From NCBI GenBank assembly GCA_903827265.1, contig CAIKHN010000009.1, positions 151 through 64,150 on the forward strand: a DNA stretch of 64,000 nt, written 5' to 3'. A model generated the notes under the pieces. The model made no database searches, was not told where the DNA came from, and saw only the letters and a list, made by a program, of their open reading frames with translations. Origin of the DNA: Candidatus Uhrbacteria bacterium. GTDB taxonomy: Bacteria; Patescibacteriota; Patescibacteriia; UBA9934. The translations under genes and the position numbers were made by a program. The first letter of the stretch is position 1; every line of letters begins with the position of its first letter. Below, one piece after another: positions 3,274 to 55,716 of this stretch.

Positions 3274-4674
3274 TTACAGCACGTCGTCGATGTCGTTTAC
3301 TGAGTAGTATGCGTCATCACGGTCGTAGTCACGGACGTTATCGATTTCGGTGCCAATCGTGTAGTTGCTGTAAAGGGCATCAGGAACCTTTGCGAGAACG
3401 TTCGTCCAATTGCTGCCGTAGTCGGATTTGAGAAGGGAAAGTGTGGTGTAGTGATGAAGAGTGTGGTCGGCGCTAATGGCGTATACCTTTGAGGAGCTGT
3501 CGAATTTTACGACGACACTTCCTGGACGATACGTCACATTCTTGCCGATGGTGAGTGATGACATGAAGTCTTGGCTGACGTTCACAACGTCATTAAAGTT
3601 GGAATACCAGGTGTAGAAAACACTTTCATTCGGGAACACGTGGCGCTTGCCGTCGTTGCCGTAGTAGTACACGGCCTTACATGTTTGTGATGTGTTTGCA
3701 TACACGCCGCACGCAATCTTGATGAGCGATCCGCGGTTTGCATTGTTGGATGTATGCGATTGGTTGCTCACGGTAACGGTGCGTGATGTGCCGCGTGTCC
3801 AGTTGCCATTCTCATCTTCACAATATGCGTACACCGTGTAGCTGCCGTCGTTGCTGAACGAGTAATTTTTTGTGAATCGGTTTGATGACGACTCAGTCAT
3901 CGATCCGACAGACGATCCGCTGACGTACAGTTTGCAAGTGACTGCATCGAGTGTGCCGTATGGTGTCACGCTGAAGGTAGTTGATTCGTCCTCCGTTGCG
4001 GTTGAAGGCGTTACTGATGGCACGGTGAATGTTCCAGAAGTGTCTGGGTCTTCTTGATTCACAACGCCTACTGTACGCGATGTTCCGGTGGTGTAATTGC
4101 CATCGCCGTCGGCACAGCGTGCGTGCACCGTGTAGCTGCCGTCGTTCGAGAATGTGTAGGACTTGTTAAATGTTGATCCGCTCTTCGTCATCGATCCGAC
4201 GGAGGATCCGCTGACGTACAAGTCGCAAAACGAAGTTGCGGATTCGCCAGAAGGCGTGACGCTGAAGGTTGTTGATGTGTCTTCAATGGCGGATGATGGC
4301 GAAACGGCTGGAACCGTCGGGCCAATGGTGTCGATTTCAAAAGTGACGGATGTTGATGTGCTTGTTGCATTCGTGCCTTGTGCGCGAACAAACAGCGTGT
4401 GCCAGCCGTCAGCAAGTGACCAAGTGGTATATGAGGTGACGTTTCCAAGGTTCAACCAATCGCCGTCATCGACGAGGACTTGATACCACGTTGCGTTTGC
4501 AGGACGTGTCCACGTTGCAGTCGGAGTGGTGTCGTTGGTGTAAATACCGCCAACAAGACTGAGGTTTGTTGGCGCTGCGAGCGTTGCAGCAAGCAATGAT
4601 TGTGGGAGGATCCCAAGGAACAGTGCGGAAAGCGTTGCAATTCCGAGTGCCTTTCGGAGGGAGAGGTTTGTCAT
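3274..4674 (-). CDS. Secreted surface protein with a signal peptide, two tandem ~95-aa Ig-like repeats (…TTFSVTP…YVSGSSVGSMT…NDGSYTV…C.DG.GN.T.GTSRTV…), Thr/Ser-rich linkers and a C-terminal domain
   Basis: Signal-peptide-like N-terminus (LGIATLSALFLGILPQSLLAA). Internal duplication is visible in the translation. Confidence 0.5.
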   Translation of the reverse strand: MTNLSLRKALGIATLSALFLGILPQSLLAATLAAPTNLSLVGGIYTNDTTPTATWTRPANATWYQVLVDDGDWLNLGNVTSYTTWSLADGWHTLFVRAQGTNATSTSTSVTFEIDTIGPTVPAVSPSSAIEDTSTTFSVTPSGESATSFCDLYVSGSSVGSMTKSGSTFNKSYTFSNDGSYTVHARCADGDGNYTTGTSRTVGVVNQEDPDTSGTFTVPSVTPSTATEDESTTFSVTPYGTLDAVTCKLYVSGSSVGSMTESSSNRFTKNYSFSNDGSYTVYAYCEDENGNWTRGTSRTVTVSNQSHTSNNANRGSLIKIACGVYANTSQTCKAVYYYGNDGKRHVFPNESVFYTWYSNFNDVVNVSQDFMSSLTIGKNVTYRPGSVVVKFDSSSKVYAISADHTLHHYTTLSLLKSDYGSNWTNVLAKVPDALYSNYTIGTEIDNVRDYDRDDAYYSVNDIDDVL

Positions 4675-4758
4675 ATACCACCATTGCATGCTTGTTTGGT
4701 GTGGTTGTCAATGCGAAAAAATGTGGATTGATTTTCCGCAAGCTGATACGATTGTTTT

Positions 4759-10254: not shown

Positions 10255-10340
10255 TCGAGCGAATCAACGGGTGGCACCGAGGGACGCGAGCGCCAGTGAC
10301 GACGGTACATGTTTCGCAACGAGCAGCACGGATGCACAGC

Positions 10341-10362
10341 CACGTCGTTCGCGAACGACGTG
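10341..10362. repeat. Perfect 22-bp palindrome cacgtcgttcgcgaacgacgtg. A second copy lies at 38483..38506 inside the 38-kb repeat element.
   Basis: Exact sequence match seen by eye. Confidence 0.7.
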
Positions 10363-10465
10363 GCACGGCCGTAGTCGAGTGAAACGAGGCGTCACGGCGT
10401 AGCGTCCTTGCGCACAGTGAAGAAACATGTACCCGAGTCACCAAGCGAGCGATTAGGAATTGACT

Positions 10466-10493
10466 GGATCCCCGCCTTCGCGGGGATGACTGA
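10466..10493 (-). repeat. Short hairpin repeat family R1 (tcagtcatccccgcg-N4-gcggggatcc), reverse orientation. Other copies are at 20488..20515 and 27857..27884.
   Basis: Three near-identical copies, each an 8-bp-stem hairpin, all intergenic. Confidence 0.7.
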
Positions 10494-17689: not shown

Positions 17690-18090
17690 CCCTCCCCCTT
17701 TCCGAGGGGGAGTAGGAGGGGGTGGAAGCTATAGAAATCAGACCTGATTCTTTTGAAAAGGTCGTGACGGAAATGGCCGCGTGAAGAAAATGTCGGGAGT
17801 ATGGGTGTTCGATTTTAAAAGGGGTATTTTGTTAACGCAACTCATTCGCATTAAGGAATCGGTGGTTAATTATTGCGTGGACGCATAGGTCGTATTGGAC
17901 CAATACGACCAATATTCAATACTTAATTGAAACTGATTTCGAAATTTTCAGATTTTCGATTCATATCGCAACGTGGTGTGAAGTTTAAAAGGGTCAAAAA
18001 ACGACAGTAGTGTTTCAAAATGAGGATACCGACACGGACGATTCACCTCCCCGACCCCTCTAAAGAATCAGTTTCATCCTGGTCTTTTTC
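17690..18090 (+). repeat. Copy 1 of an intergenic repeat element. It comprises an upstream ~70-bp module X (hairpin ctcccctttccgaggggag, then …aatcagacctgattcttttgaaaag), a ~320-bp interior bounded by inverted repeats ctgattctttt (17744..17754) / aaagaatcag (18062..18071), and the interior palindrome ggtcgtattgg-a-ccaatacgacc. Copy 2 at about 38135..38570 has the interior in the opposite orientation.
   Basis: Direct comparison with 38135..38570: X and the tail are direct repeats; the interior is about 95% identical as a reverse complement. Confidence 0.65.
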
Positions 18091-20478: not shown

Positions 20479-20487
20479 CCGTTTGGT

Positions 20488-20515
20488 TCAGTCATCCCCG
20501 CGCAGGCGGGGATCC
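20488..20515 (+). repeat. Hairpin repeat R1 copy (tcagtcatccccgcgcaggcggggatcc), followed by a second hairpin (gaacgggacgagc-gaa-gctcgtcccgtt) serving as the ABC-F terminator
   Basis: Sequence identity with the copies at 10466 and 27857. Confidence 0.7.
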
Positions 20516-20587
20516 ATCAGAAAGCGTGAACGGGACGAGCGAAGCTCGTCCCGTTTCGTTAATCAGCGCGTCGCTGATCCGTTGTAC

Positions 20588-27856: not shown

Positions 27857-27884
27857 TCAGTCATCCTCGCGTATGCGGGGATCC
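27857..27884 (+). repeat. Hairpin repeat R1 copy (tcagtcatcctcgcgtatgcggggatcc), preceded by two degenerate tcagtcatcc half-copies at about 27822 and 27830
   Basis: Sequence identity with the other R1 copies. Confidence 0.65.
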
Positions 27885-28044
27885 AGTAATCATCGGCTTC
27901 CCTCACTCATCAACGGGTCCTGTCACCTCGGACCCCGTTACGGTGCTCACCGCGCACGAGGCGTTTGCGGTAATCGGAATCGACATCTGTGCTCGTTGCG
28001 CTCCGTACGGGGGCCTCCCTCGGTGCCACCCGTTGATTCGTTCG

Positions 28045-28428
28045 CTACGCTTTCGCCTTAAAATCCAACGACAACGAATTCACGCAATATCGCATTCCCG
28101 TCGGTGCTGGTCCATCGGGGAACACGTGGCCAAGGTGGGCGCGGCAGTTGGCGCAAAGAATTTCTGTTCGTGCCATGCCGAGCTTTCGATCGGGTTCTGT
28201 TGCAACATTTGCGGAGTTTGCGGTATCCCAAAAACTCGGCCAACCGGTTCCGGAATCAAACTTCGTATCCGAACTAAACAATTCGTGTCCACAATTTGCG
28301 CAAACATACATTCCGGCGTCGGTTGTTTTGTAATACTTCCCGCTAAACGGCGGTTCGGTGCCTTTCAGAAAACAGACATTTTCCTGTTCTGGTGTGAGAT
28401 TCGGGTTCCGGATGCGTTCGTGTTCCAT
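28045..28428 (-). CDS. msrB: Peptide-methionine (R)-S-oxide reductase MsrB
   Basis: CANC…CRAHLGHVF.DGP, the GWPSF motif and zinc-binding CxxC pairs. Confidence 0.85.
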   Translation of the reverse strand: MEHERIRNPNLTPEQENVCFLKGTEPPFSGKYYKTTDAGMYVCANCGHELFSSDTKFDSGTGWPSFWDTANSANVATEPDRKLGMARTEILCANCRAHLGHVFPDGPAPTGMRYCVNSLSLDFKAKA

Positions 28429-38134: not shown

Positions 38135-38570
38135 GACTAAGACTCTCCCCTTTCCAAGGGGAGTAGGAGGGGTTGGAGCTACAGGACTTGAATCTGATTC
38201 TTTGAAAAGTTGGGTCGGGAATCGGAAACTGATTCATCCGGGTTGGCTATCCTCATTTTGTGGAGCACATGTCGTTTTTTGACCCTTTTAAACTTCACAC
38301 CACGTTGCGATATGAATCGAAAATCTGAAAATTTCGAAATCAGTTTCAATTAAGTATTGAATATTGGTCGTATTGGTCCAACACGACCTGTGCGTCCACG
38401 CAATAATTAACCACCGTTTCCTTAATGCAAATGAGTTGCGTTAACGAAACACACAGTTTCAAATCGAACACCCCTACTCCCGACACGTCGTTCGCGAACG
38501 ACGTGTCCCGACAAGAGTTTTCCGTTCCCCCCAAAACTATCAAAGAATCAGTTTCATTCTCAGTTCATAT
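38135..38570 (+). repeat. Copy 2 of the intergenic repeat element. Module X (38146..38210) and the tail are direct relative to copy 1. The interior between ctgattctttg (38194..38204) and caaagaatcag (38541..38551) is reverse-complemented relative to copy 1. It also contains the R2 palindrome at 38483..38506.
   Basis: Direct sequence comparison with 17690..18090. Confidence 0.65.
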
Positions 38571-43392: not shown

Positions 43393-45652
<2,260 letters not shown>

Positions 45653-45822
45653 CGAACGAATCAAAGGGTCTCGTATCGCTCGCTGGTGACTCGGGTACAT
45701 GTTTCTTCACTCGCCGCAACGATCGTCACGCCACGACGTCTCGCTCTGCTCGACTGTGGCTGGACGACTGTGCGGTTCGTTGCGAAACATATACCCTCGT
45801 CACTGGCGCTCGCGCCATCCCT

Positions 45823-46263
45823 ATGCTTAAACTCAAATACCAAATCGTTACTCCAGAACGCGTCGTCCAAGAAGGCGAGGCGGATTCGATTTCGGTCATG
45901 ACTAGTCAGGGAGAAATCACCGTCCTTCCGCATCACGTGCCGCTGTTAGCGCTCATGAAGGCTGGTGAGATGCGTGTTATGAACGGCGGACAAGAATTAT
46001 TGTTCGCGACGTCGACCGGGCTTTTCGAAGTTCGAGATGGATCGTCGGTTGTTGTGCTGGCGGATACCGCGGAACGGAGTGAGGAACTCGAGCTTGCCGC
46101 GATCGAAACCGCGAAAAAGCAGGCTGAGGAGAATCTCAAAAACATACGGAACTCGAACGATGTTGGTTTCGTCGACGCCGCAGCTCACCTCGAGCGCGAG
46201 CTTGCTCGGTACCGTGTAGCTCTAAAGAAAGGGAAGGCGAAATATCACCGAACCGAAGCATAA
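45823..46263 (+). CDS. atpC: F0F1 ATP synthase subunit epsilon
   Basis: Beta-sandwich plus C-terminal helices. The gene is separated from atpD by an unusual 170-nt GC-rich spacer. Confidence 0.85.
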   Translation: MLKLKYQIVTPERVVQEGEADSISVMTSQGEITVLPHHVPLLALMKAGEMRVMNGGQELLFATSTGLFEVRDGSSVVVLADTAERSEELELAAIETAKKQAEENLKNIRNSNDVGFVDAAAHLERELARYRVALKKGKAKYHRTEA

Positions 46264-46292
46264 CGGGGTCAGGTCTTTACCTTTTACTTTTT
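46263..46292 (+). repeat. 30-bp repeat R3, copy a (acggggtcaggtctttaccttttacttttt), starting on the last base of the atpC stop codon
   Basis: Identical to copy c. Reverse-complement copies are at 48021 and 55306. Confidence 0.8.
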
Positions 46293-46331
46293 ACACAAAA
46301 CATCTGCGTGATTGCAGATGTTTTGTGTTTA
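46293..46331 (+). terminator. atpC terminator (acacaaaacatctgc-gtgatt-gcagatgttttgtgt-ttat)
   Basis: Perfect 15-bp stem followed by a T-rich tract. Confidence 0.7.
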
Positions 46332-46372
46332 TCGTTGATATTTGCTACATTCCTCGAGCTCAAGGGGTTCCC

Positions 46373-46708
46373 ATGTCTTCGTATACGCTTCGTCTGATCC
46401 TCGTCACGTTGTCCGCCCAGAACGAAAAGGAGGAGGTTTACTTCGCGAGGTATCTCAAAGAAGGATTCCTTATCGCCGCTGAAACCAAAGAGGCCGTGTC
46501 GGCGCTGCTCGTCATTCCACGTGAGGCGTTCGAGGCGCGTCTGAAGGATGCGGTCAGTGAAGAACGCGCGTTCACGGAATCCGAGGACCGGGTTCGCGAA
46601 GTCTGGCGGGCGGTGGACAGGCTCTATTCGCCGAAGGATGGGGTCAAGATCGTCCGGTTCGAAATTGTTCAGTTCAGTATGGCAGAGACGACGGAACTTC
46701 CGCTCTGA
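46373..46708 (+). CDS. Orphan hypothetical protein (cassette gene 1). It is followed by its own terminator hairpin at 46708..46768.
   Basis: ORF. GC-rich. Downstream hairpin ccgcactc…gagtgcgg plus a T-rich tract. Confidence 0.4.
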   Translation: MSSYTLRLILVTLSAQNEKEEVYFARYLKEGFLIAAETKEAVSALLVIPREAFEARLKDAVSEERAFTESEDRVREVWRAVDRLYSPKDGVKIVRFEIVQFSMAETTELPL

Positions 46709-46849
46709 CCGCACTCTGCACCGTCCTGACGAAGGACCGCGTGCGAGTGCGGTCCTTTCGTTTTGCGACACTTGTAGAAAGGGTTTTTACGTCGCCTCAT
46801 TCTTGAACTTCCTGTAACTTCGTGGTGAAATTGTGCGCGGAGACTGACC

Positions 46850-47383
46850 ATGGAAATCAGTGGGTACCTCGGCCCCGAGGTGAAAAAAGGGGGTTTGTTG
46901 GTAACGATGGAAAAGTGCATGCTCGACATCAGCAGGATTCACCTGAATGTTCAGGCGTGTGTTCGGGAGGTGGAGTCCACGTTGGGACGCTACTGTCGAG
47001 GGGCGTCAGGACTGGCACAATACGTCGTCAATGCGCCTGTGTTCGTCGTCCGTCTCGGTGACGGCCATTCGCCGGAGCTCTTGGAACGCCTTCGACTCGT
47101 GTACGCCACCGGCAAACGGCCTTGGCCGTTCGTGGGCGTCTGGGCATCGAACGGACATGCAGTCATCGTGCTCCTTGGAGAGGGAGCCGAATCTGGTGCC
47201 TCGACCTTGACGGCGATTCGGCGGATGATGCATCTCTTCGGACGGAACGAACGTGCTTCATTCTTCACATCGCGCTCCATCGATCCAAAACTTCACGAAA
47301 CGCTCGGAATCGTGAAAGACGAAATCCAGGGGAATCGAGAAGGCGGACTTCCGGCGTTCTGGTATCAACTCATTCCGGTGTGA
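46850..47383 (+). CDS. Orphan hypothetical protein (cassette gene 2)
   Basis: ORF. GC-rich. It is followed by the 45-nt terminator repeat at 47394..47438. Confidence 0.4.
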   Translation: MEISGYLGPEVKKGGLLVTMEKCMLDISRIHLNVQACVREVESTLGRYCRGASGLAQYVVNAPVFVVRLGDGHSPELLERLRLVYATGKRPWPFVGVWASNGHAVIVLLGEGAESGASTLTAIRRMMHLFGRNERASFFTSRSIDPKLHETLGIVKDEIQGNREGGLPAFWYQLIPV

Positions 47384-47393
47384 CATCGACGAC

Positions 47394-47438
47394 AAACGGG
47401 GAGGGCTTGCGCGGCGAGCCCTCCTTTCGGTTTGCGAA
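47394..47438 (+). terminator. Terminator repeat R5 (aaacggggagggcttgcgcggcgagccctcctttcggtttgcgaa). An identical copy lies at 47967..48011.
   Basis: Two identical 45-nt copies, each following an orphan gene. GC hairpin plus T-rich tract. Confidence 0.65.
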
Positions 47439-47481
47439 GGGAAGAATCCCTGGTACTCTTTTGGTGTTCACAGAGGAATGC

Positions 47482-47961
47482 ATGACACGAGATCAAGCGA
47501 TTCGGCTCGTCATCGATGGAACTGTCGCGCTCGAAGAAGGGGCCTCAAAAATCGACATTACGCTGATTCGAAAACCGGACCATCCGGAAAAACTCGAACG
47601 CGATTACCGACAGCGCGGATGGATGGTCGCGAGGTGGAGGGAGTGTCAGATGGACGACGGTGCAGGACTGTTTCATCTTCGCCGCAAGAGTGGAGAGGAG
47701 ACTGAGGCGGAGGCGCTGTTCAATCTGTTCGAACGCGACGAGTGGTTCGACGGAAGAAAGAGGTGGGAAAACCGCGAGCTCCTTGCCGGCGGGGTCGGCG
47801 CGAATCCCGGCGAACTCACGAGTCAGCTGGATGTACTGTTCGCTTCGGTTCCCTCAGACGCTGTGAAGGGTCGGAGGGGATGGAAGGTTACGGAAATCGC
47901 AGAAACGAAGGAACACGGAACGGTGCTCGTCAAAATTCAGAGAACCGATCCAACGAAATGA
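47482..47961 (+). CDS. Orphan hypothetical protein (cassette gene 3)
   Basis: ORF trimmed from track 47122..47961. It is followed by terminator repeat R5 copy 2. Confidence 0.4.
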   Translation: MTRDQAIRLVIDGTVALEEGASKIDITLIRKPDHPEKLERDYRQRGWMVARWRECQMDDGAGLFHLRRKSGEETEAEALFNLFERDEWFDGRKRWENRELLAGGVGANPGELTSQLDVLFASVPSDAVKGRRGWKVTEIAETKEHGTVLVKIQRTDPTK

Positions 47962-48020
47962 CGGAGAAACGGGGAGGGCTTGCGCGGCGAGCCCTCCTTT
48001 CGGTTTGCGAAAAAGTAAAA

Positions 48021-48050
48021 AGTAAAGACCTGGCCCCGTCGTGTGACGGG
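48021..48050 (-). repeat. 30-bp repeat R3, copy b (reverse orientation, 28/30 identical), closing the 1.75-kb GC-rich cassette
   Basis: Reverse complement of copy a with two mismatches. Confidence 0.8.
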
Positions 48051-51066: not shown

Positions 51067-54003
51067 ATGTCGTCGCTTCTCGAGCATTTGAACAGTGAAC
51101 AACAGCAAGCGGTCACGCATGGCGATGGCCCGCTCATGATTATCGCTGGCGCAGGAACAGGAAAAACGACCGTCATCACCAAGCGCATCGCGTGGCTCAT
51201 TGAACAGGGAAAAGCAATGCCGGAGAATATTCTTGCCTTAACATTTACCGACAAGGCTGCGAATGAAATGGAGGAACGCGTCGACGTGTTGCTGCCAATG
51301 GGATACGTCGATTTATCCATTTCGACCTTTCACGCATTCTGCGAGAAGGTTCTTCGTGAACACGGCGTTGATATTGGAATCCCGCAGGACTTCACGGTTG
51401 CTTCCGAGGTCGATGGTTGGCTGTTCATGCGACGGCATCTTGCTGATTTCAATCTCGACTATTACAAGCCTCGAGGAACTCCAACGAAATTCTTTAAGTT
51501 GCTGCTTTCCCATTTCTCGAGAGCAAAGGACGAAGGAATTACGCCGGATCAATACATTGCGAATGTTGAGAACCAAATTGCATCGATGACTTCGGGATCA
51601 GAAGAGGCATTTGATGCGCTACCGGAAGAAGAGCGACTCGAATGGATTAAGCATCGAGAAGTCGCTCGAGCGTACAAAACGTATCAGGATATTTTGATCG
51701 CAGAAGATGCGCTCGACTTTGGCGATTTGCTCGCATACACCGTTGAACTCTTTAAGACTCGGCCGAATATTCTCGCGGAGTATCGAAAGCGGTTTACGTA
51801 CATCGTCGTCGATGAGTTTCAAGACACGAATAGTGTCCAGTACGAACTCGTGAAACTTTTGGCAGCGCCGAAAAACAACCTCACGATTGTTGGAGACGAT
51901 GATCAAGCCATTTACAAATTCCGTGGAGCAGCACTCGCGAACATTCTCACGTTCCGATCGGATTTTCCTGATACGAAAAAGATCGTGCTCGTTCACAATT
52001 ATCGTAGTGGCAGAGGGATTCTCGTTGTGGCGTATTCGTCCATCACCAAGAACAATCCGCATCGGCTCGAAATCTCCGAAGGGTTATCAAAGCAACTGAT
52101 CTCGAATATCGAGCACACAGGAAATGTCCACCACATCCACGCGGCAACGCTCGAGGACGAAGTTGCGACCGTCGTCGAAACCATCACATCGCTCCACGAC
52201 GAAACTGGTGCGAACTGGAAAGACTTCGCGATTTTGGCGCGAGGCAACGACCACGTCGATCCGTTTTTGGAAGCGCTCGAACGTGCCGGTATTCCGTACC
52301 GATTCATGGCGTTGTCTGGCTTGTACACGATGCCGATCATTCTTGATGCGCTTTGCTATCTTCGTGTCATCAACGCACCGCACGATTCACCGTCGCTCTA
52401 CCGAATCCTCTCTCATCCACGATTAGGATTGTCGCAAGAAGATCTGACGGCACTCATGTTCTATGCTCGACGAAAAGGAATGTCGTTGTTTGATTTATTA
52501 ACGTACGCCGATGCTGCACGTATTTCGATGCAGGGGCGAAATACCATCATCGATCTTCAGCAGAAACTCGGTGAACTTCGAAACAAAGCAAAGCGACTGC
52601 CAATCACCGAGCTCTTCGTGACAATGATGAAAGAAACCGGATTACTCGGTGACTGCCAGCGCGCCTCAGAAATGGAACAGCAGGAGCTCTACAGGTTCCT
52701 CGAGCGGTTCTTTAATCGGCTGAAGCGATTCGTTGCAATGAACGACGATGCAACGTTGCCACGATTCATCGAGGAGTTCGATGCCGAACGTGCGGCAGGG
52801 GAGGACGGCTCCGTTGCACAGGATCCTGAGGAAGGCCCGGACGTTGTGTCGGTCATGACTGTGCACGGATCAAAAGGTTTGGAGTTCCGATACGTATTTG
52901 TCATCAATCTTGTTGAGCAACGTTTTCCATCGGTGAGCCGATCGCAAGCAATCGACTTTCCGCCGGGATTAATGAAAGATGAGGTTGATGGGAACGATCA
53001 CGTTGCAGAAGAGCGTCGACTGTTTTATGTTGCGATGACGCGAGCAAAAGAGGGTTTGTATTTGATGAGTGCCGAAGATTACGGAGGATCGCGAAAGCGC
53101 AAAATTTCCCGGTTCCTCGATGAGCTCGGTTATACCAATACGATCAGCGTGGCTCGTCCTGAGAATATTGCGGACACTCTCGCGCTTGAAGTTGGTAAAA
53201 AACCAACAGGCGATGCGAACATTCATATTCCGGACAAGATTAGCTTCTCGCAGATTGCAGCATTCAGTACATGTCCATTGCAATACAAATGCGCACACAT
53301 CATTGGTGTTCCGTCGTACGGTAAGCATCAGATGAGTTTCGGAAAGTCGATGCACAATGCGTTGCAAGCATTCATGGAGCGCATTATTGCCGCAAAGGCT
53401 GCGCATCAGGCAACGTTGTTCGGTGGCGTCACCGAATCCATCGCGCTCCCAACGATGAAAGATCTGCTCGATATGTACGATCGATCGTGGATCGATGAAT
53501 GGTATCCGGACGATGCAACCCGCGATGACTACCGTGCTCGAGGTGCAGAAATCATGAAGGAATACTATCGCGTCGTCTCGGAAAATCCACCGTCGCCGAA
53601 ATACATCGAGAAAGGATTTACGTTGAAAATTGATGGCATCCTCGTGAAGGGGCGTATCGACAGAATCGACGACGTCGAAGGCGGCATTGAAATTATCGAC
53701 TACAAGACCGGTACACCGAAAACAAAACTCGAGTGGGACGATCGGCGACAGTTGGTGCTGTACGCGCTTGCTGCAGAGGAGAGCTTTGTTCCACCGCTCG
53801 TCGTCAAAAAGCTGACGTATTATTATTTGGAATCAAATACGGCGGTCAGCTTCGAGCCAACCGACAAAGACAAAGAAAAACTGAAGATGCAAATTCGCGA
53901 GAGCATGGAAAAAATTCGGACAAGTACGTTTCAGGCAACGCCGGGGCAACACTGTCAGTATTGTGACTTTAAAGATATCTGCCCGTATGCAAGACCAGCC
54001 TAA
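51067..54003 (+). CDS. UvrD/PcrA-family SF1 DNA helicase fused to a C-terminal PD-(D/E)xK (RecB/Cas4-like) nuclease domain with a Cys cluster (AddA-like helicase-nuclease)
   Basis: Helicase motifs (GAGTGKT, DEFQDTN, VGDDDQAIYKFRGA, …TVHGSKGLEF, VAMTRAK). C-terminal IIDYKT…QLVLY…CQYCDFKDICP. Confidence 0.8.
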   Translation: MSSLLEHLNSEQQQAVTHGDGPLMIIAGAGTGKTTVITKRIAWLIEQGKAMPENILALTFTDKAANEMEERVDVLLPMGYVDLSISTFHAFCEKVLREHGVDIGIPQDFTVASEVDGWLFMRRHLADFNLDYYKPRGTPTKFFKLLLSHFSRAKDEGITPDQYIANVENQIASMTSGSEEAFDALPEEERLEWIKHREVARAYKTYQDILIAEDALDFGDLLAYTVELFKTRPNILAEYRKRFTYIVVDEFQDTNSVQYELVKLLAAPKNNLTIVGDDDQAIYKFRGAALANILTFRSDFPDTKKIVLVHNYRSGRGILVVAYSSITKNNPHRLEISEGLSKQLISNIEHTGNVHHIHAATLEDEVATVVETITSLHDETGANWKDFAILARGNDHVDPFLEALERAGIPYRFMALSGLYTMPIILDALCYLRVINAPHDSPSLYRILSHPRLGLSQEDLTALMFYARRKGMSLFDLLTYADAARISMQGRNTIIDLQQKLGELRNKAKRLPITELFVTMMKETGLLGDCQRASEMEQQELYRFLERFFNRLKRFVAMNDDATLPRFIEEFDAERAAGEDGSVAQDPEEGPDVVSVMTVHGSKGLEFRYVFVINLVEQRFPSVSRSQAIDFPPGLMKDEVDGNDHVAEERRLFYVAMTRAKEGLYLMSAEDYGGSRKRKISRFLDELGYTNTISVARPENIADTLALEVGKKPTGDANIHIPDKISFSQIAAFSTCPLQYKCAHIIGVPSYGKHQMSFGKSMHNALQAFMERIIAAKAAHQATLFGGVTESIALPTMKDLLDMYDRSWIDEWYPDDATRDDYRARGAEIMKEYYRVVSENPPSPKYIEKGFTLKIDGILVKGRIDRIDDVEGGIEIIDYKTGTPKTKLEWDDRRQLVLYALAAEESFVPPLVVKKLTYYYLESNTAVSFEPTDKDKEKLKMQIRESMEKIRTSTFQATPGQHCQYCDFKDICPYARPA

Positions 54004-54037
54004 ACGCAAACGGAGTTCGCTGACGCAGATTAGCAAA

Positions 54038-54334
54038 ATGCTCGAAGGCACGCTGAAACGTCACGGCATTACAAAACAAGTGACCGCAGCAATCATCGTC
54101 GACCGCGCAAAGGAGATTCTTGCGGAAATGCTCGAAGGCTCGCCGCTTGCTGATGACGTTCGTGTTTCGAGTTACGCTGCTGGTATTCTCGTTCTTGGAT
54201 GCGACAACGCACCAGCGACGTTTGATATTAGTGGAATGATCCCAACAATTCTGGCGCGAATTCAATCCGAAATCCCCGAAGCTGATATCACGAAAATTAT
54301 TGCCAGAGTCCAGAAGGAGAAGGGGAATTTCTGA
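54038..54334 (+). CDS. Small protein, DUF721/DciA-like (tentative)
   Basis: Size, position after the helicase and the pattern …IVDRAKEIL…GILVLGCDN…; the start is uncertain, with 53987 as an alternative. Confidence 0.3.
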   Translation: MLEGTLKRHGITKQVTAAIIVDRAKEILAEMLEGSPLADDVRVSSYAAGILVLGCDNAPATFDISGMIPTILARIQSEIPEADITKIIARVQKEKGNF

Positions 54335-54344
54335 CAGGGTCTGA

Positions 54345-54374
54345 ACGGGGTCAGGTCTTTACCTTTTACTTTTT
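54345..54374 (+). repeat. 30-bp repeat R3, copy c (30/30 identical to copy a), ending 4 nt before the ATG of the next gene
   Basis: Exact match. Confidence 0.8.
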
Positions 54375-54378
54375 TACT

Positions 54379-55185
54379 ATGCGCGATGTATTTGAAACGG
54401 GTAACAAGGACAGCGATGTTCAAGAAAGGCAAATTGGCCACGGAGAGTTCGGCGATATTCGGGTAAGGCGAATGAGCAGAAACGGCGTTGAATCGCTTTG
54501 CGCTGAAAAAGATTACCGAGGCGATGTTGAACGTGGGCAACACGCATACAGTGTTTGGTTTGCGTTGCACAGCGCCGGTGTTCCAACTTTTACCTGGTAT
54601 GAGAGGAGTAGCGATCGCGATGACGTTATATCCATGCCATTTGTTGGAAGTCCGTCACGCGAAAACGGAAAGCACGTTCCTGGCGATATCCTTTGCGCGA
54701 CTCCGTTGCAGCGAAGCGAAGGGATGAATATTTTGGAAAAAGAAGGACTCGCAATTGACGAGGAAAATATTGATGCTCTTTGTATAAATGTCCTCGAAAT
54801 TATTCGTGGAGCTGATGCTATTAACGCCGAACTCACCCACGATTCCGTGCTTTTTCGTGCGACATATCACGAGAACACGTGGAAATTGTCGGAAATTTTT
54901 ATCGGCGACTTTGACGCGGTATCTGTTCACGGTGAAGAGGCCGGATACATTAGCCCAAGAGAACTCCATGAAAATAATCTCATGGCCGTTGTTGGTACAA
55001 CACGGCATTTCGTCGAGGAGTTCTGCAAGAAGAGCTCGTCAATGACGGCGGAAGGGATCGGTGACCTTTTAAAGGAATCTGTACGGATCGGCAGGACGCT
55101 CTCTGAGGAAGAAAAGAAGAGAATTCTTGAGGAATCGACAGTTCCTTTAGTCGCCATGAATGTTACATCTTGGGACGATTTGTAA
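54379..55185 (+). CDS. Orphan protein with a kinase-like signature (…LTHDSVLF… / …IGDFDAV…), tentatively an atypical kinase-fold protein
   Basis: HxD-like and DF[GD]-like motifs. The gene is flanked by R3 copies. Confidence 0.35.
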   Translation: MRDVFETGNKDSDVQERQIGHGEFGDIRVRRMSRNGVESLCAEKDYRGDVERGQHAYSVWFALHSAGVPTFTWYERSSDRDDVISMPFVGSPSRENGKHVPGDILCATPLQRSEGMNILEKEGLAIDEENIDALCINVLEIIRGADAINAELTHDSVLFRATYHENTWKLSEIFIGDFDAVSVHGEEAGYISPRELHENNLMAVVGTTRHFVEEFCKKSSSMTAEGIGDLLKESVRIGRTLSEEEKKRILEESTVPLVAMNVTSWDDL

Positions 55186-55192
55186 AATTTAG

Positions 55193-55221
55193 AGGGAGTC
55201 GGGTCTTTACCTTTTTCTTTT
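55193..55221 (+). repeat. R3 variant copy d (gggagtcgggtctttacctttttctttt)
   Basis: About 23/30 match to R3. Confidence 0.55.
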
Positions 55222-55305
55222 GCGATTTACGAGAAGTTTTCGGAATGATCTGTATGAAGCTCGCAGTGAGTAGAAAAGGATCGATTACGGGGGTGATATG
55301 ATACC

Positions 55306-55335
55306 AAGAGTAAAAGGTAAAGACCCGGCCCCCGT
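55306..55335 (-). repeat. R3 variant copy e (reverse orientation; aagagtaaaaggtaaagacccggcccccgt), abutting the ATG at 55336
   Basis: About 25/30 match to the R3 reverse complement. Confidence 0.65.
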
Positions 55336-55716
55336 ATGTCCCTCCGACAATATCTTATTGCCCTCGCGATCGGCACTGCTATTAGCATTTCTGCGTGGTG
55401 CATTATTGTGATGTCTATTAATCCTGCTACTGCAGGTTGGCTCGCGTTTTCGGTGTTTTATCTTACGCTTGGCGCGGGAATTGCTGGGCTATTTACTATT
55501 GGGGGAACGGTTATTCGCTCACGGAAATACGCGGAAGATCAAATTCATTCAGCGGTTGCCCGATCGTTTCGTCAGGCAATGATGCTCTCCGGATTATTTC
55601 TTTCTTGCTTGTTTTTACTTTCCCGCGATCTGTTTTCACTAGGAACCATGTTGTTATTAGTCGTTCTTGTCGGCCTCGTTGAGCTACTCATGATGAGTAT
55701 TCGCAAGGAGGCATAG
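55336..55716 (+). CDS. Small four-TM membrane protein, hypothetical
   Basis: Hydrophobicity. Confidence 0.45.
   Translation: MSLRQYLIALAIGTAISISAWCIIVMSINPATAGWLAFSVFYLTLGAGIAGLFTIGGTVIRSRKYAEDQIHSAVARSFRQAMMLSGLFLSCLFLLSRDLFSLGTMLLLVVLVGLVELLMMSIRKEA

Follow-up and report, generated by a model that had tools for sequence, protein, structure and literature searches.

A 30-nt repeat, R3 (ACGGGGTCAGGTCTTTACCTTTTACTTTTT), occurs five times in a 64,000-nt stretch of compact chromosome from a Candidatus Uhrbacteria bacterium (hereafter the window), and three of the copies lie at positions 54345-55335, around and beside a gene for a protein of 268 amino acids (aa), o268. Most probably (roughly 80%), R3 is a terminal inverted repeat (TIR) from a TIRtron, the name for a unit in which the gene for a TIRYT, a RAYT-related HUH/Y1 tyrosine transposase of single-stranded DNA, stands between TIRs; at this site the TIRYT gene would have been lost and the repeats left around o268, a passenger gene. 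RAYT-like genes flanked by TIRs were named TIRYT, and the units TIRtrons, by Di Nocera et al. 2013 (PMC3733652), who noted that many TIRs share the motif GGGGWSAS and that some form moderately abundant families occurring as singles, dimers, and clusters. The 5' end of R3, GGGGTCAG, fits this published signature exactly. The initial annotation, made from the sequence of the window, had suggested that R3 marks cassette or module junctions, for example as a recombination site; rather than a generic site of that kind, R3 is the TIR of a RAYT-like HUH transposase family.

The five copies differ in orientation, integrity, and setting. Copies a (46263-46292, forward strand) and c (54345-54374, forward) are intact and identical at 30 of 30 positions, and copy b (48010-48039, reverse) has 2 mismatches; a and b are solo TIR copies. 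Copies d (55193-55222, forward, core 55202-55215) and e (55306-55335, reverse, core 55312-55325) are diverged, with identities to intact R3 of 25/29 and ∼26/30, respectively; d is direct and e inverted relative to c. They are 82 nt apart and 86% complementary over 29 nt. In 100 dinucleotide-preserving shuffles of the window, the number of 30-mer matches expected by chance is 0, and the 14-nt core GGTCTTTACCTTTT, used with up to 2 mismatches, has exactly five sites in the window versus 0.31 in the shuffles. Copy c starts 10 nt after the stop codon of dciA, and 4 nt (TACT) separate its end from the o268 ATG at 54379. With its last base at 55335, copy e directly abuts the ATG at 55336 of a gene for a predicted membrane protein. 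Copy a takes in the final base of the stop codon of atpC and is followed by a 16-bp hairpin, and copy b lies behind the terminator-like hairpin of the small gene o159, 93 nt from the next ATG. The positions, identities, and orientations reported in the initial annotation are all borne out; that the copies always stand at gene boundaries is true as well, although in so compact a genome, with very little space between genes, such positions are in part inevitable.

Evidence for a TIRtron comes from the same site in relatives. The interval between dciA and the membrane-protein gene was compared in five genomes, that of the window and those with loci L021, L107, L114, and L115, and the four related Patescibacteria genomes have a TIRYT gene in this interval with R3 copies around it. 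The nearest genome in the species collection, Patescibacteria group bacterium H41-bin182_1 (L021), encodes AddA, DciA, and MreB proteins that are 95.5%, 95.7%, and 95.7% identical to those of the window, and its interval consists of a forward R3, a reverse-strand TIRYT, and two reverse R3 copies (R3> <TIRYT <R3 <R3), with no passenger. In L107, a contig of 1,077 nt, a forward R3 is followed by an orthologue of o268 (66% aa identity), a second forward R3, and the 3' end of a TIRYT gene on the reverse strand, in this order. In L114 and L115, the place of o268 is taken by p354, a 354-aa open reading frame (ORF) without similarity to o268, and the order is R3> p354> R3> <TIRYT <R3 <R3. The window reads R3c> o268> R3d>, then 82 nt, then <R3e. 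The passenger slot hence exists in three allelic states, empty (H41-bin182_1), o268 (window and L107), and p354 (L114 and L115), and a passenger is always bounded by direct R3 copies, with its ATG 4 nt past the forward R3. At this site, R3 copies delimit content that varies among relatives, and the view of R3 as marking cassette or module junctions is upheld here, though not, as described below, for the pair of copies a and b.

Relative to this layout, the window holds a TIRtron remnant rather than an intact TIRtron, namely a passenger between copies c and d followed by a stump of d and e. The dciA-like gene (53987..54334, forward; Pfam DciA; 95.7% aa identity in H41-bin182_1) is the conserved left flank, and the gene for the 126-aa predicted membrane protein (55336..55716, forward), upstream of mreB and 79.5% identical in H41-bin182_1, is the conserved right flank. 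The passenger o268 (54379..55185, forward) has copies c and d, in direct orientation, on its two sides, and the spacer between d and e (55223..55305) stands where relatives have TIRYT (∼850 nt) and one further R3. Copy d aligns at 25/29 positions to the H41-bin182_1 R3 directly adjoining the stop codon of TIRYT and is the counterpart of the TIR overlapping the 3' end of TIRYT. Within the spacer only the last 14 nt (GGTGATATGATACC) are still alignable; together with copy e they align to the outermost TIR of H41-bin182_1 (31/32 and 19/21), and copies orthologous to e, taken as the outer TIR at the 5' end of the lost TIRYT, abut the same membrane-protein ATG in H41-bin182_1, L114, and L115. In a global alignment with the H41-bin182_1 locus, the only solid blocks are copy d and 55292-55345 (the same 31/32 and 19/21). 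Copies d and e thus look like the decaying ends of a TIRtron that lost TIRYT and one TIR, and their divergence fits decay after that loss. The unit bracketed from c to e in the initial annotation is accordingly redrawn: o268 sits between direct copies c and d, and d and e belong to what is left of a neighboring transposase element. A search of the spacer for a remnant of TIRYT itself gave only scattered blocks of 4-13 nt, which were judged not credible.

The repeats at this site have changed far less than the sequence between them. Orthologues of copy c are identical at 30/30 positions in H41-bin182_1 and L114 and at 29/30 in L107, while the o268 genes of the window and of L107 have reached saturation at synonymous sites (pS 0.72), a comparison that shows, at the level of sequence, far stronger constraint on the TIR than on synonymous sites. 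Both R3 copies of L107 (83-112 and 927-957) share a private C-to-G change (TTTTAGTTTTT) unseen in orthologous copies of other genomes, which suggests concerted evolution or homogenization of TIR copies within one genome. Together, the conservation of R3 and the shared change in L107 point to constraint or homogenization.

The gene between inverted R3 copies in H41-bin182_1 encodes a 281-aa protein with the motifs NHYH and YIVLNP and a weak C-terminal helix-turn-helix (HTH). It scores 83.1 bits against the NCBIfam model REP_Tyr_transpos (cut-off of 80), matches Pfam Y1_Tnp at 7e-11, and has a weak match to HTH_38. In an alignment of 33 TIRYT sequences, N59, H60, and H62 are invariant or nearly so and YxVLNP is conserved. 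Inverted copies of the repeat family flank a Y1/HUH gene in L021, L114, L115, L003, and L006, with the downstream copy at or overlapping the end of the gene. No tnpB-like ORF lies beside TIRYT in L021, L114, or L115. According to Quentin et al. 2018 (PMC6006769), TIRYTs largely correspond to TnpA-Y1 subclass 2.1, which is RAYT Group 1 of Bertels et al. 2017 (PMC5581495); the present assignment to subclass 2.1 is by motifs only (NHYH, FQ, YIVLNP, and the HTH tail).

The association of TIRYT with R3-like repeats extends well beyond this site. Relatives of TIRYT form >7,000 protein clusters at E <= 1e-10, and 80 metagenome loci (L027-L106) with relatives at 39-58% identity were taken for a census of the motif GGGTCAGGTCTT, allowing up to 1 mismatch within 150 nt of the gene and using the opposite orientation as the control. 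The motif is present in forward orientation upstream of TIRYT in 58 of 75 loci versus 3 in the inverted control, in inverted orientation downstream in 43 of 70 versus 2 in the forward control, and on both sides in 36 of 65. The outer 12-13 nt of the TIR (GGGGTCAGGTCTT) are nearly invariant across the family, and the inner 12-15 nt are specific to lineages; R3 is, judged by its sequence, the variant of Patescibacteria/Uhrbacteria. Plasmid 24 of the cultured strain Legionella adelaidensis NCTC12735, a closed sequence, has the same layout of TIRs and TIRYT at 352182-353045, and the layout is therefore not an artefact of binning or assembly.

Searched with GNGNCNGGTCTTTACYTTTTWCT, a collection of 185,579 species genomes yielded 25 stretches; ∼70 matches are expected by chance, a rough estimate from the size of the collection, and isolated single matches prove little. 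Recurrent matches carry more weight: H41-bin182_1 has 8 copies of the same 23-mer, which is found again in four Uhrbacteria metagenome-assembled genomes (MAGs), a variant that starts with GGTG occurs on four contigs of a Planctomycetota MAG, and versions with small changes are found in Nitrospirota, Campylobacteraceae (Campylobacterota), and one gammaproteobacterium. In the Planctomycetota MAG, TIRYT homologues (37-40% identity) lie next to GGTGTCAGGTCTTTACTTTTTACT, a variant whose orientation toward the gene is unchanged. These comparisons show what kind of repeat R3 is, and its association with TIRYT is seen in five phylum-level groups; R3, far from being confined to the locus under study, is present in several Patescibacteria/Uhrbacteria genomes and, in altered form, in other phyla.

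Copies vary in number and arrangement. The Uhrbacteria genome UBA12070 has 16 copies of a 15-nt core, H41-bin182_1 has 8 exact-pattern copies, and the window has 5 in 64 kb. Four units of ∼285 nt in UBA12070 (L007 3844-4128, L013 5715-5979, L015 4326-4590, and L016 2237-2501) resemble miniature inverted-repeat transposable elements (MITEs), each consisting of two direct TIRs 40 nt apart, an AT-rich center of ∼150 nt, and two inverted TIRs. At L002 6418-6477 and L018 6693-6750, inverted TIR pairs only 3-11 nt apart form perfect or near-perfect palindromes, with no TIRYT within the fetched 8 kb. A palindrome of 59 nt (-29 kcal/mol) lies on the Campylobacteraceae contig, and near-perfect TIR palindromes also occur on Planctomycetota contigs.

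Compared with known systems, R3 and its gene match published TIRtrons most closely. In both, a Y1/HUH gene with a C-terminal HTH lies between inverted repeats that start with GGGGWSAS, the downstream TIR overlaps the end of the gene, further TIR copies are scattered in moderate number as singles, dimers, and clusters, and the taxonomic spread is wide and patchy. The differences are that the hosts are Patescibacteria, members of the candidate phyla radiation (CPR), for which no report was found in the literature; that the window has TIRs without the gene, and relatives have a passenger slot with alternative genes beside TIRYT; and that the conserved stretch measures ∼13 nt when phyla are compared and ∼25 nt inside the R3 lineage, versus a published motif of 8 nt. 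With repetitive extragenic palindromic (REP) sequences, REPINs, and their RAYTs (Nunvar 2010; Bertels and Rainey 2011; Ton-Hoang 2012), R3 shares the form of short intergenic repeats, single or in inverted doublets, a single-copy HUH/Y1 gene flanked by inverted copies and inherited vertically at a fixed chromosomal locus, and insertion/empty-site polymorphism of individual repeats. Unlike canonical REPs and REPINs of RAYT Groups 2/3, R3 has neither a 5' GT[AG]G foot nor an imperfect palindrome, its copies seem few (8 exact ones in the sister genome, where canonical REPs number tens to hundreds per genome), and its sequence is common to several phyla whereas REPs are species specific. Members of IS200/IS605 (IS608, ISDra2) share a homologous catalytic domain (Pfam Y1_Tnp), and their single-strand "peel and paste" without target duplication is a model for how TIR units may move; however, their subterminal hairpins in place of TIRs, frequent tnpB, and multiple identical copies are not seen here. 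Integron attC cassettes resemble the slot in that a promoterless ORF with one repeat lies in direct orientation beside a recombinase gene and the content varies; here there is no IntI tyrosine recombinase, no imperfect palindrome of the attC type, and only a single slot. The element, then, has the features of TIRYT-associated TIRs and lacks those of canonical REPs, of IS200/IS605, and of integrons.

We propose that, in this lineage, a TIRtron sits at the site flanked by dciA and by the membrane-protein gene that precedes mreB, with the full layout as seen in relatives (dciA> R3> passenger gene> R3> <TIRYT <R3 <R3 membrane gene>). The window genome would have kept the passenger o268 and deleted TIRYT with one R3, leaving d and e as they now stand, and copies a and b would be solo TIRs that settled between genes elsewhere, in the manner of REP-like repeats. 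The TnpA of IS608 and ISDra2 and the TnpA-REP of E. coli are characterized relatives (summarized in PMC6006769); by analogy with IS200/IS605 TnpA and TnpA-REP, TIRYT may bind and cut the TIR and so copy or move single TIRs and TIR-bounded segments, with the Y1 enzyme nicking and rejoining single-stranded DNA at its cognate end sequence. Because R3 alone forms no hairpin, the HTH tail may instead read the conserved 13-mer as duplex. A passenger unit of one R3 and one ORF would be gained or lost by recombination at R3, and a forward TIR may help express the gene next to it. The manner in which units move is inferred from these analogies: strand transfer at R3, deletion between direct R3 copies, or allelic replacement via the conserved flanks could each produce the passenger polymorphism, and the data do not discriminate among them.

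Several points weigh against a TIRtron origin of R3. Differences in the slot can be explained by homologous recombination between strains or by direct-repeat deletion, with no need of a transposase. A tblastn search of the 64-kb window with the H41-bin182_1 TIRYT gave no match at E below 0.27. Copies a and c are perfectly identical yet d and e have decayed, which is odd without an enzyme or other constraint acting, and at the junction of copy b no target-site duplication or defined cleavage site is readable. Characterized HUH/Y1 enzymes recognize hairpins, whereas R3 is not palindromic and its best single-strand fold is a 4-bp mini-hairpin (-1.9 kcal/mol, z -1.8). Quentin et al. (PMC6006769) found no REP-like repeats for subclass 2.1, and TIRs were reported only by Di Nocera et al.; we found no biochemical work on the TIRYT family in the literature.

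The weak fold also rules out R3 itself as a hairpin or terminator. A terminator-like stem occurs at copy c only and is made by its flank: at 54336-54359, directly after dciA, 10 nt specific to the window (AGGGTCTGA...) pair with TCAGGTCTT of copy c, giving 9 pairs followed by the T-rich tail of R3. This flank is missing in H41-bin182_1.

Solo copies a and b show that R3 can be gained or lost without a gene. A close relative, L109 (AtpD 96.6% and AtpC 92% identical), has orthologues of the three small genes between atpC and a nuoL-like gene, o111 (46373-46708; 68.5% identity), o177 (46850-47383; 49%), and o159 (47482-47961; 63%), and this interval of L109 lacks any R3 when up to 3 mismatches to the 15-nt core are allowed. 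Copy b is part of ∼42 nt that the window has in excess of L109, whose flanks align almost base for base as an empty site. Copy b is therefore a discrete insertion of ∼42 nt with an insertion/empty-site polymorphism, and single TIR copies can come and go alone, as REP-type repeats do. The site of copy a is occupied in L109 by unalignable sequence of the same length. More distant relatives (L110 and L112) keep only some of o111, o177, and o159, and in L110 an R3 is instead located directly before the atpC ATG. Genes between copies a and b are resident, fast-evolving genes and not a cassette. None of the three has a Pfam match, their identity to the L109 orthologues is 49-68% versus 92-97% in the flanks, and their number varies between relatives. 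GC content at 46293-48009 is 0.556 versus ∼0.50 around it. A relationship of o177 and o159 as paralogues was rejected (E 0.8). A GC-rich, terminator-like hairpin of 48 nt follows both o177 (47391-47438) and o159 (47964-48011) with 98% identity, and the one after o159 is conserved in L109.

An alternative to a TIRtron is that R3 serves as an integron-like cassette site, with units of R3 and a promoterless ORF captured and excised at a platform beside an HUH recombinase gene. The slot beside the 3' TIR of TIRYT, bounded by direct R3 copies and holding nothing, o268, or p354, speaks for this alternative, and elsewhere in the family at least 3 TIR cores are present in 17 of the 80 census loci, some of them bounding unrelated extra genes beside TIRYT, e.g. 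an HNH-like gene (L028), a 308-aa ORF (L064), and a ParA-like gene (L032). Yet there is one slot with three states only, neither a cassette array nor circular intermediates are seen, copies a and b flank resident genes, and in relatives R3 also brackets or precedes the housekeeping genes mnmA, hpf, and atpC; direct-repeat deletion or allelic replacement through the conserved flanks fits the slot equally. We consider a cassette site of this kind unlikely. In a more far-reaching version, TIRYT and its TIRs would constitute an HUH-based, integron-like platform for gene capture in CPR genomes, in which units of R3 and an ORF are inserted or removed beside the 3' TIR of TIRYT by HUH-catalyzed single-strand transfer and the forward TIR supplies an expression signal for captured genes and, when dispersed, for housekeeping genes. 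This is speculative, and we regard it as improbable.

The location of R3 relative to start codons bears on another alternative, in which R3 is primarily a host expression or regulatory signal, either a promoter or leader that travels with the repeat or an operator bound by the HTH of a domesticated TIRYT, and would be kept for its control over neighboring genes. In 33 loci whose TIR motif starts 43-48 nt (mode 45) upstream of the ATG, TTG is found at +10 in 22, and TAnnnT at +31 to +35 (mode +33) in 27, versus 18% in shuffles, with 17 having the TG of an extended -10; the ATG follows at +43 to +48 (mode +45). The -35 box of a promoter thus seems to lie within the family TIR, and a leaderless TIRYT transcript would start at or next to the ATG. 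In the R3 lineage, forward R3 copies lie 0-14 nt before the ATG of o268, p354, TIRYT, hpf, mnmA, atpC, a pyrophosphatase gene, and a DHH-like gene, with mnmA bracketed by an inverted R3 pair. Independent cases of R3 before an ATG number seven forward versus one inverted (counted by hand). Those before housekeeping genes of relatives are at L025 3891-3913, L010 7735-7757, L024 6870-7930, L014 2570-2592, L026 674-696, and L110 4975-4989, where the forward R3 occupies the expected Shine-Dalgarno region.

This -35 element with its -10-like box and leaderless geometry, the bias toward forward copies before start codons, and conservation of R3 far above neutral are all in line with an expression signal. 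Conversely, copies a, b, d, and e are downstream of genes and/or inverted, copy b was inserted recently and stands 93 nt away from the next start, and the putative regulator is lost at the window locus. In the R3 lineage the ATG is at +26 to +40, which misfits the -35/-10 geometry, and a sigma-70 scan found no promoter within R3. A role primarily as a host signal is on balance quite unlikely. Neisseria Correia elements, which are promoter-bearing MITEs, offer a partial parallel to R3, being short intergenic repeats with TIRs that are able to supply expression signals. They differ in being complete units of 100-150 bp with a TA target duplication, and they are not known to be linked to an HUH enzyme.

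Inverted R3 pairs spaced 1-1.8 kb apart resemble an insertion sequence (IS), and R3 could in principle mark the ends of an ordinary DDE-type IS or MITE, or be an assembly or chance artefact. No DDE transposase lies within or close to the copies, the gene that goes with them encodes a Y1/HUH protein throughout, and no target duplication is seen; R3 is found in independent assemblies and on the closed plasmid of a cultured strain, against a chance expectation of 0. Either origin is very hard to credit, and an artefact or adapter origin was rejected in view of diverging copies, occurrence in closed genomes, and empty-site alleles. No integrase lies near the site, where the neighbors encode AddA-like, DciA, MreB, and MreC proteins. 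A scan for tRNA and tmRNA genes found none in the window, and R3 is therefore not a tRNA-derived attachment site. Rfam searches, by gathering threshold over the whole window and by E-value over 54200-55500, found nothing relevant, and a full-text literature search for the R3 core sequence retrieved unrelated primer sequences only. Look-ups of the exact DciA and membrane-protein sequences found neither on record, and that of atpC found the same strain only, on a contig that breaks 205 nt after the gene.

The passenger o268 is, by its pattern of substitutions, a real gene: relative to the L107 orthologue, differences at the three codon positions number 54/55/144, and with pN of 0.20 and pS of 0.72, dN/dS is ∼0.09. 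It has no match in Pfam or NCBIfam, including curated kinase families (Pkinase, RIO1, APH, and similar). Its description as an orphan was nearly right, in that one orthologue exists and, among 1.84 billion representative proteins, four remote homologues. Linkage to TIRs is not general in this protein family, as the remote homologue P0244 has no TIR nearby.

The initial annotation had also called the protein kinase-like, and a structure-based search agrees at the level of fold. A single-sequence AlphaFold2 (AF2) model was unusable (pLDDT 41.6) and was replaced by a model on a 6-sequence alignment, with pLDDT of 79.8 and pTM of 0.79. Against the Protein Data Bank (PDB), every one of the top 50 Foldseek matches of the latter is a protein kinase, with Syk, PKR, Rio1, Myt1, and CK1 among them, at E values from 4e-6 and TM-scores of 0.36-0.47; by sequence, CK1 matches the protein only at E 0.1-0.6. 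The conserved motifs GxFGD, K44, H154-D155-S156, and G176-D177-F-D179 fit a Gly-rich loop, the beta3 Lys (K44), an HDS element of the catalytic loop, and a GDFD element for metal binding, respectively. The model thus confirms, at fold level, a divergent protein with a protein-kinase-like fold. Kinase activity is uncertain because the catalytic-loop Asn is not in its canonical place.

TIRYTs, or Group-1 RAYTs, are the largest RAYT group and a known kind of gene that is barely studied. New here are their presence in CPR genomes, the conservation of TIRs across phyla, the apparent promoter embedded in the TIR, the variable passenger slot, and TIRs before housekeeping genes. The locus is a natural allelic series, with an empty slot, two passengers, a deletion of the transposase gene, and a solo-TIR insertion with its empty site, in which junctions can be read to the base. 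The series shows that the TIR can be moved or copied alone and that TIR-bounded segments beside the gene differ between relatives, and it makes the action of TIRYT on TIRs testable with defined substrates. For annotation, it accounts for a striking repeat found where genes start in CPR genomes.

Other genes of the window, which stems from a groundwater-type metagenome (ENA ERZ18647255), include an ATP synthase operon and genes for an AddA-like helicase-nuclease, DciA, MreB/MreC, PBP2, GreA, and tRNA synthetases, and several distinct families of short repeats are present in this small genome. A noncoding inverted repeat of 227 nt, 93% complementary, has arms 20 kb apart at 17780-18006 and 38270-38496, each with a 35-nt CCCC/GGGG hairpin repeat (17692-17726 and 38143-38177); it has no Rfam or tRNA match and is a family distinct from R3. 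A further intergenic family, which includes the hairpin TCAGTCATCCCCGCGCAGGCGGGGATCCA, occurs at 10256-10493, 20487-20516, 27857-28050, and 45647-45814. On the minus strand, at 900-2240 and 3274-4690, dense direct repeats of 70-94 nt lie inside two long ORFs, spaced at 240-480 nt and ∼290 nt, and these ORFs probably encode repeat-domain surface proteins.

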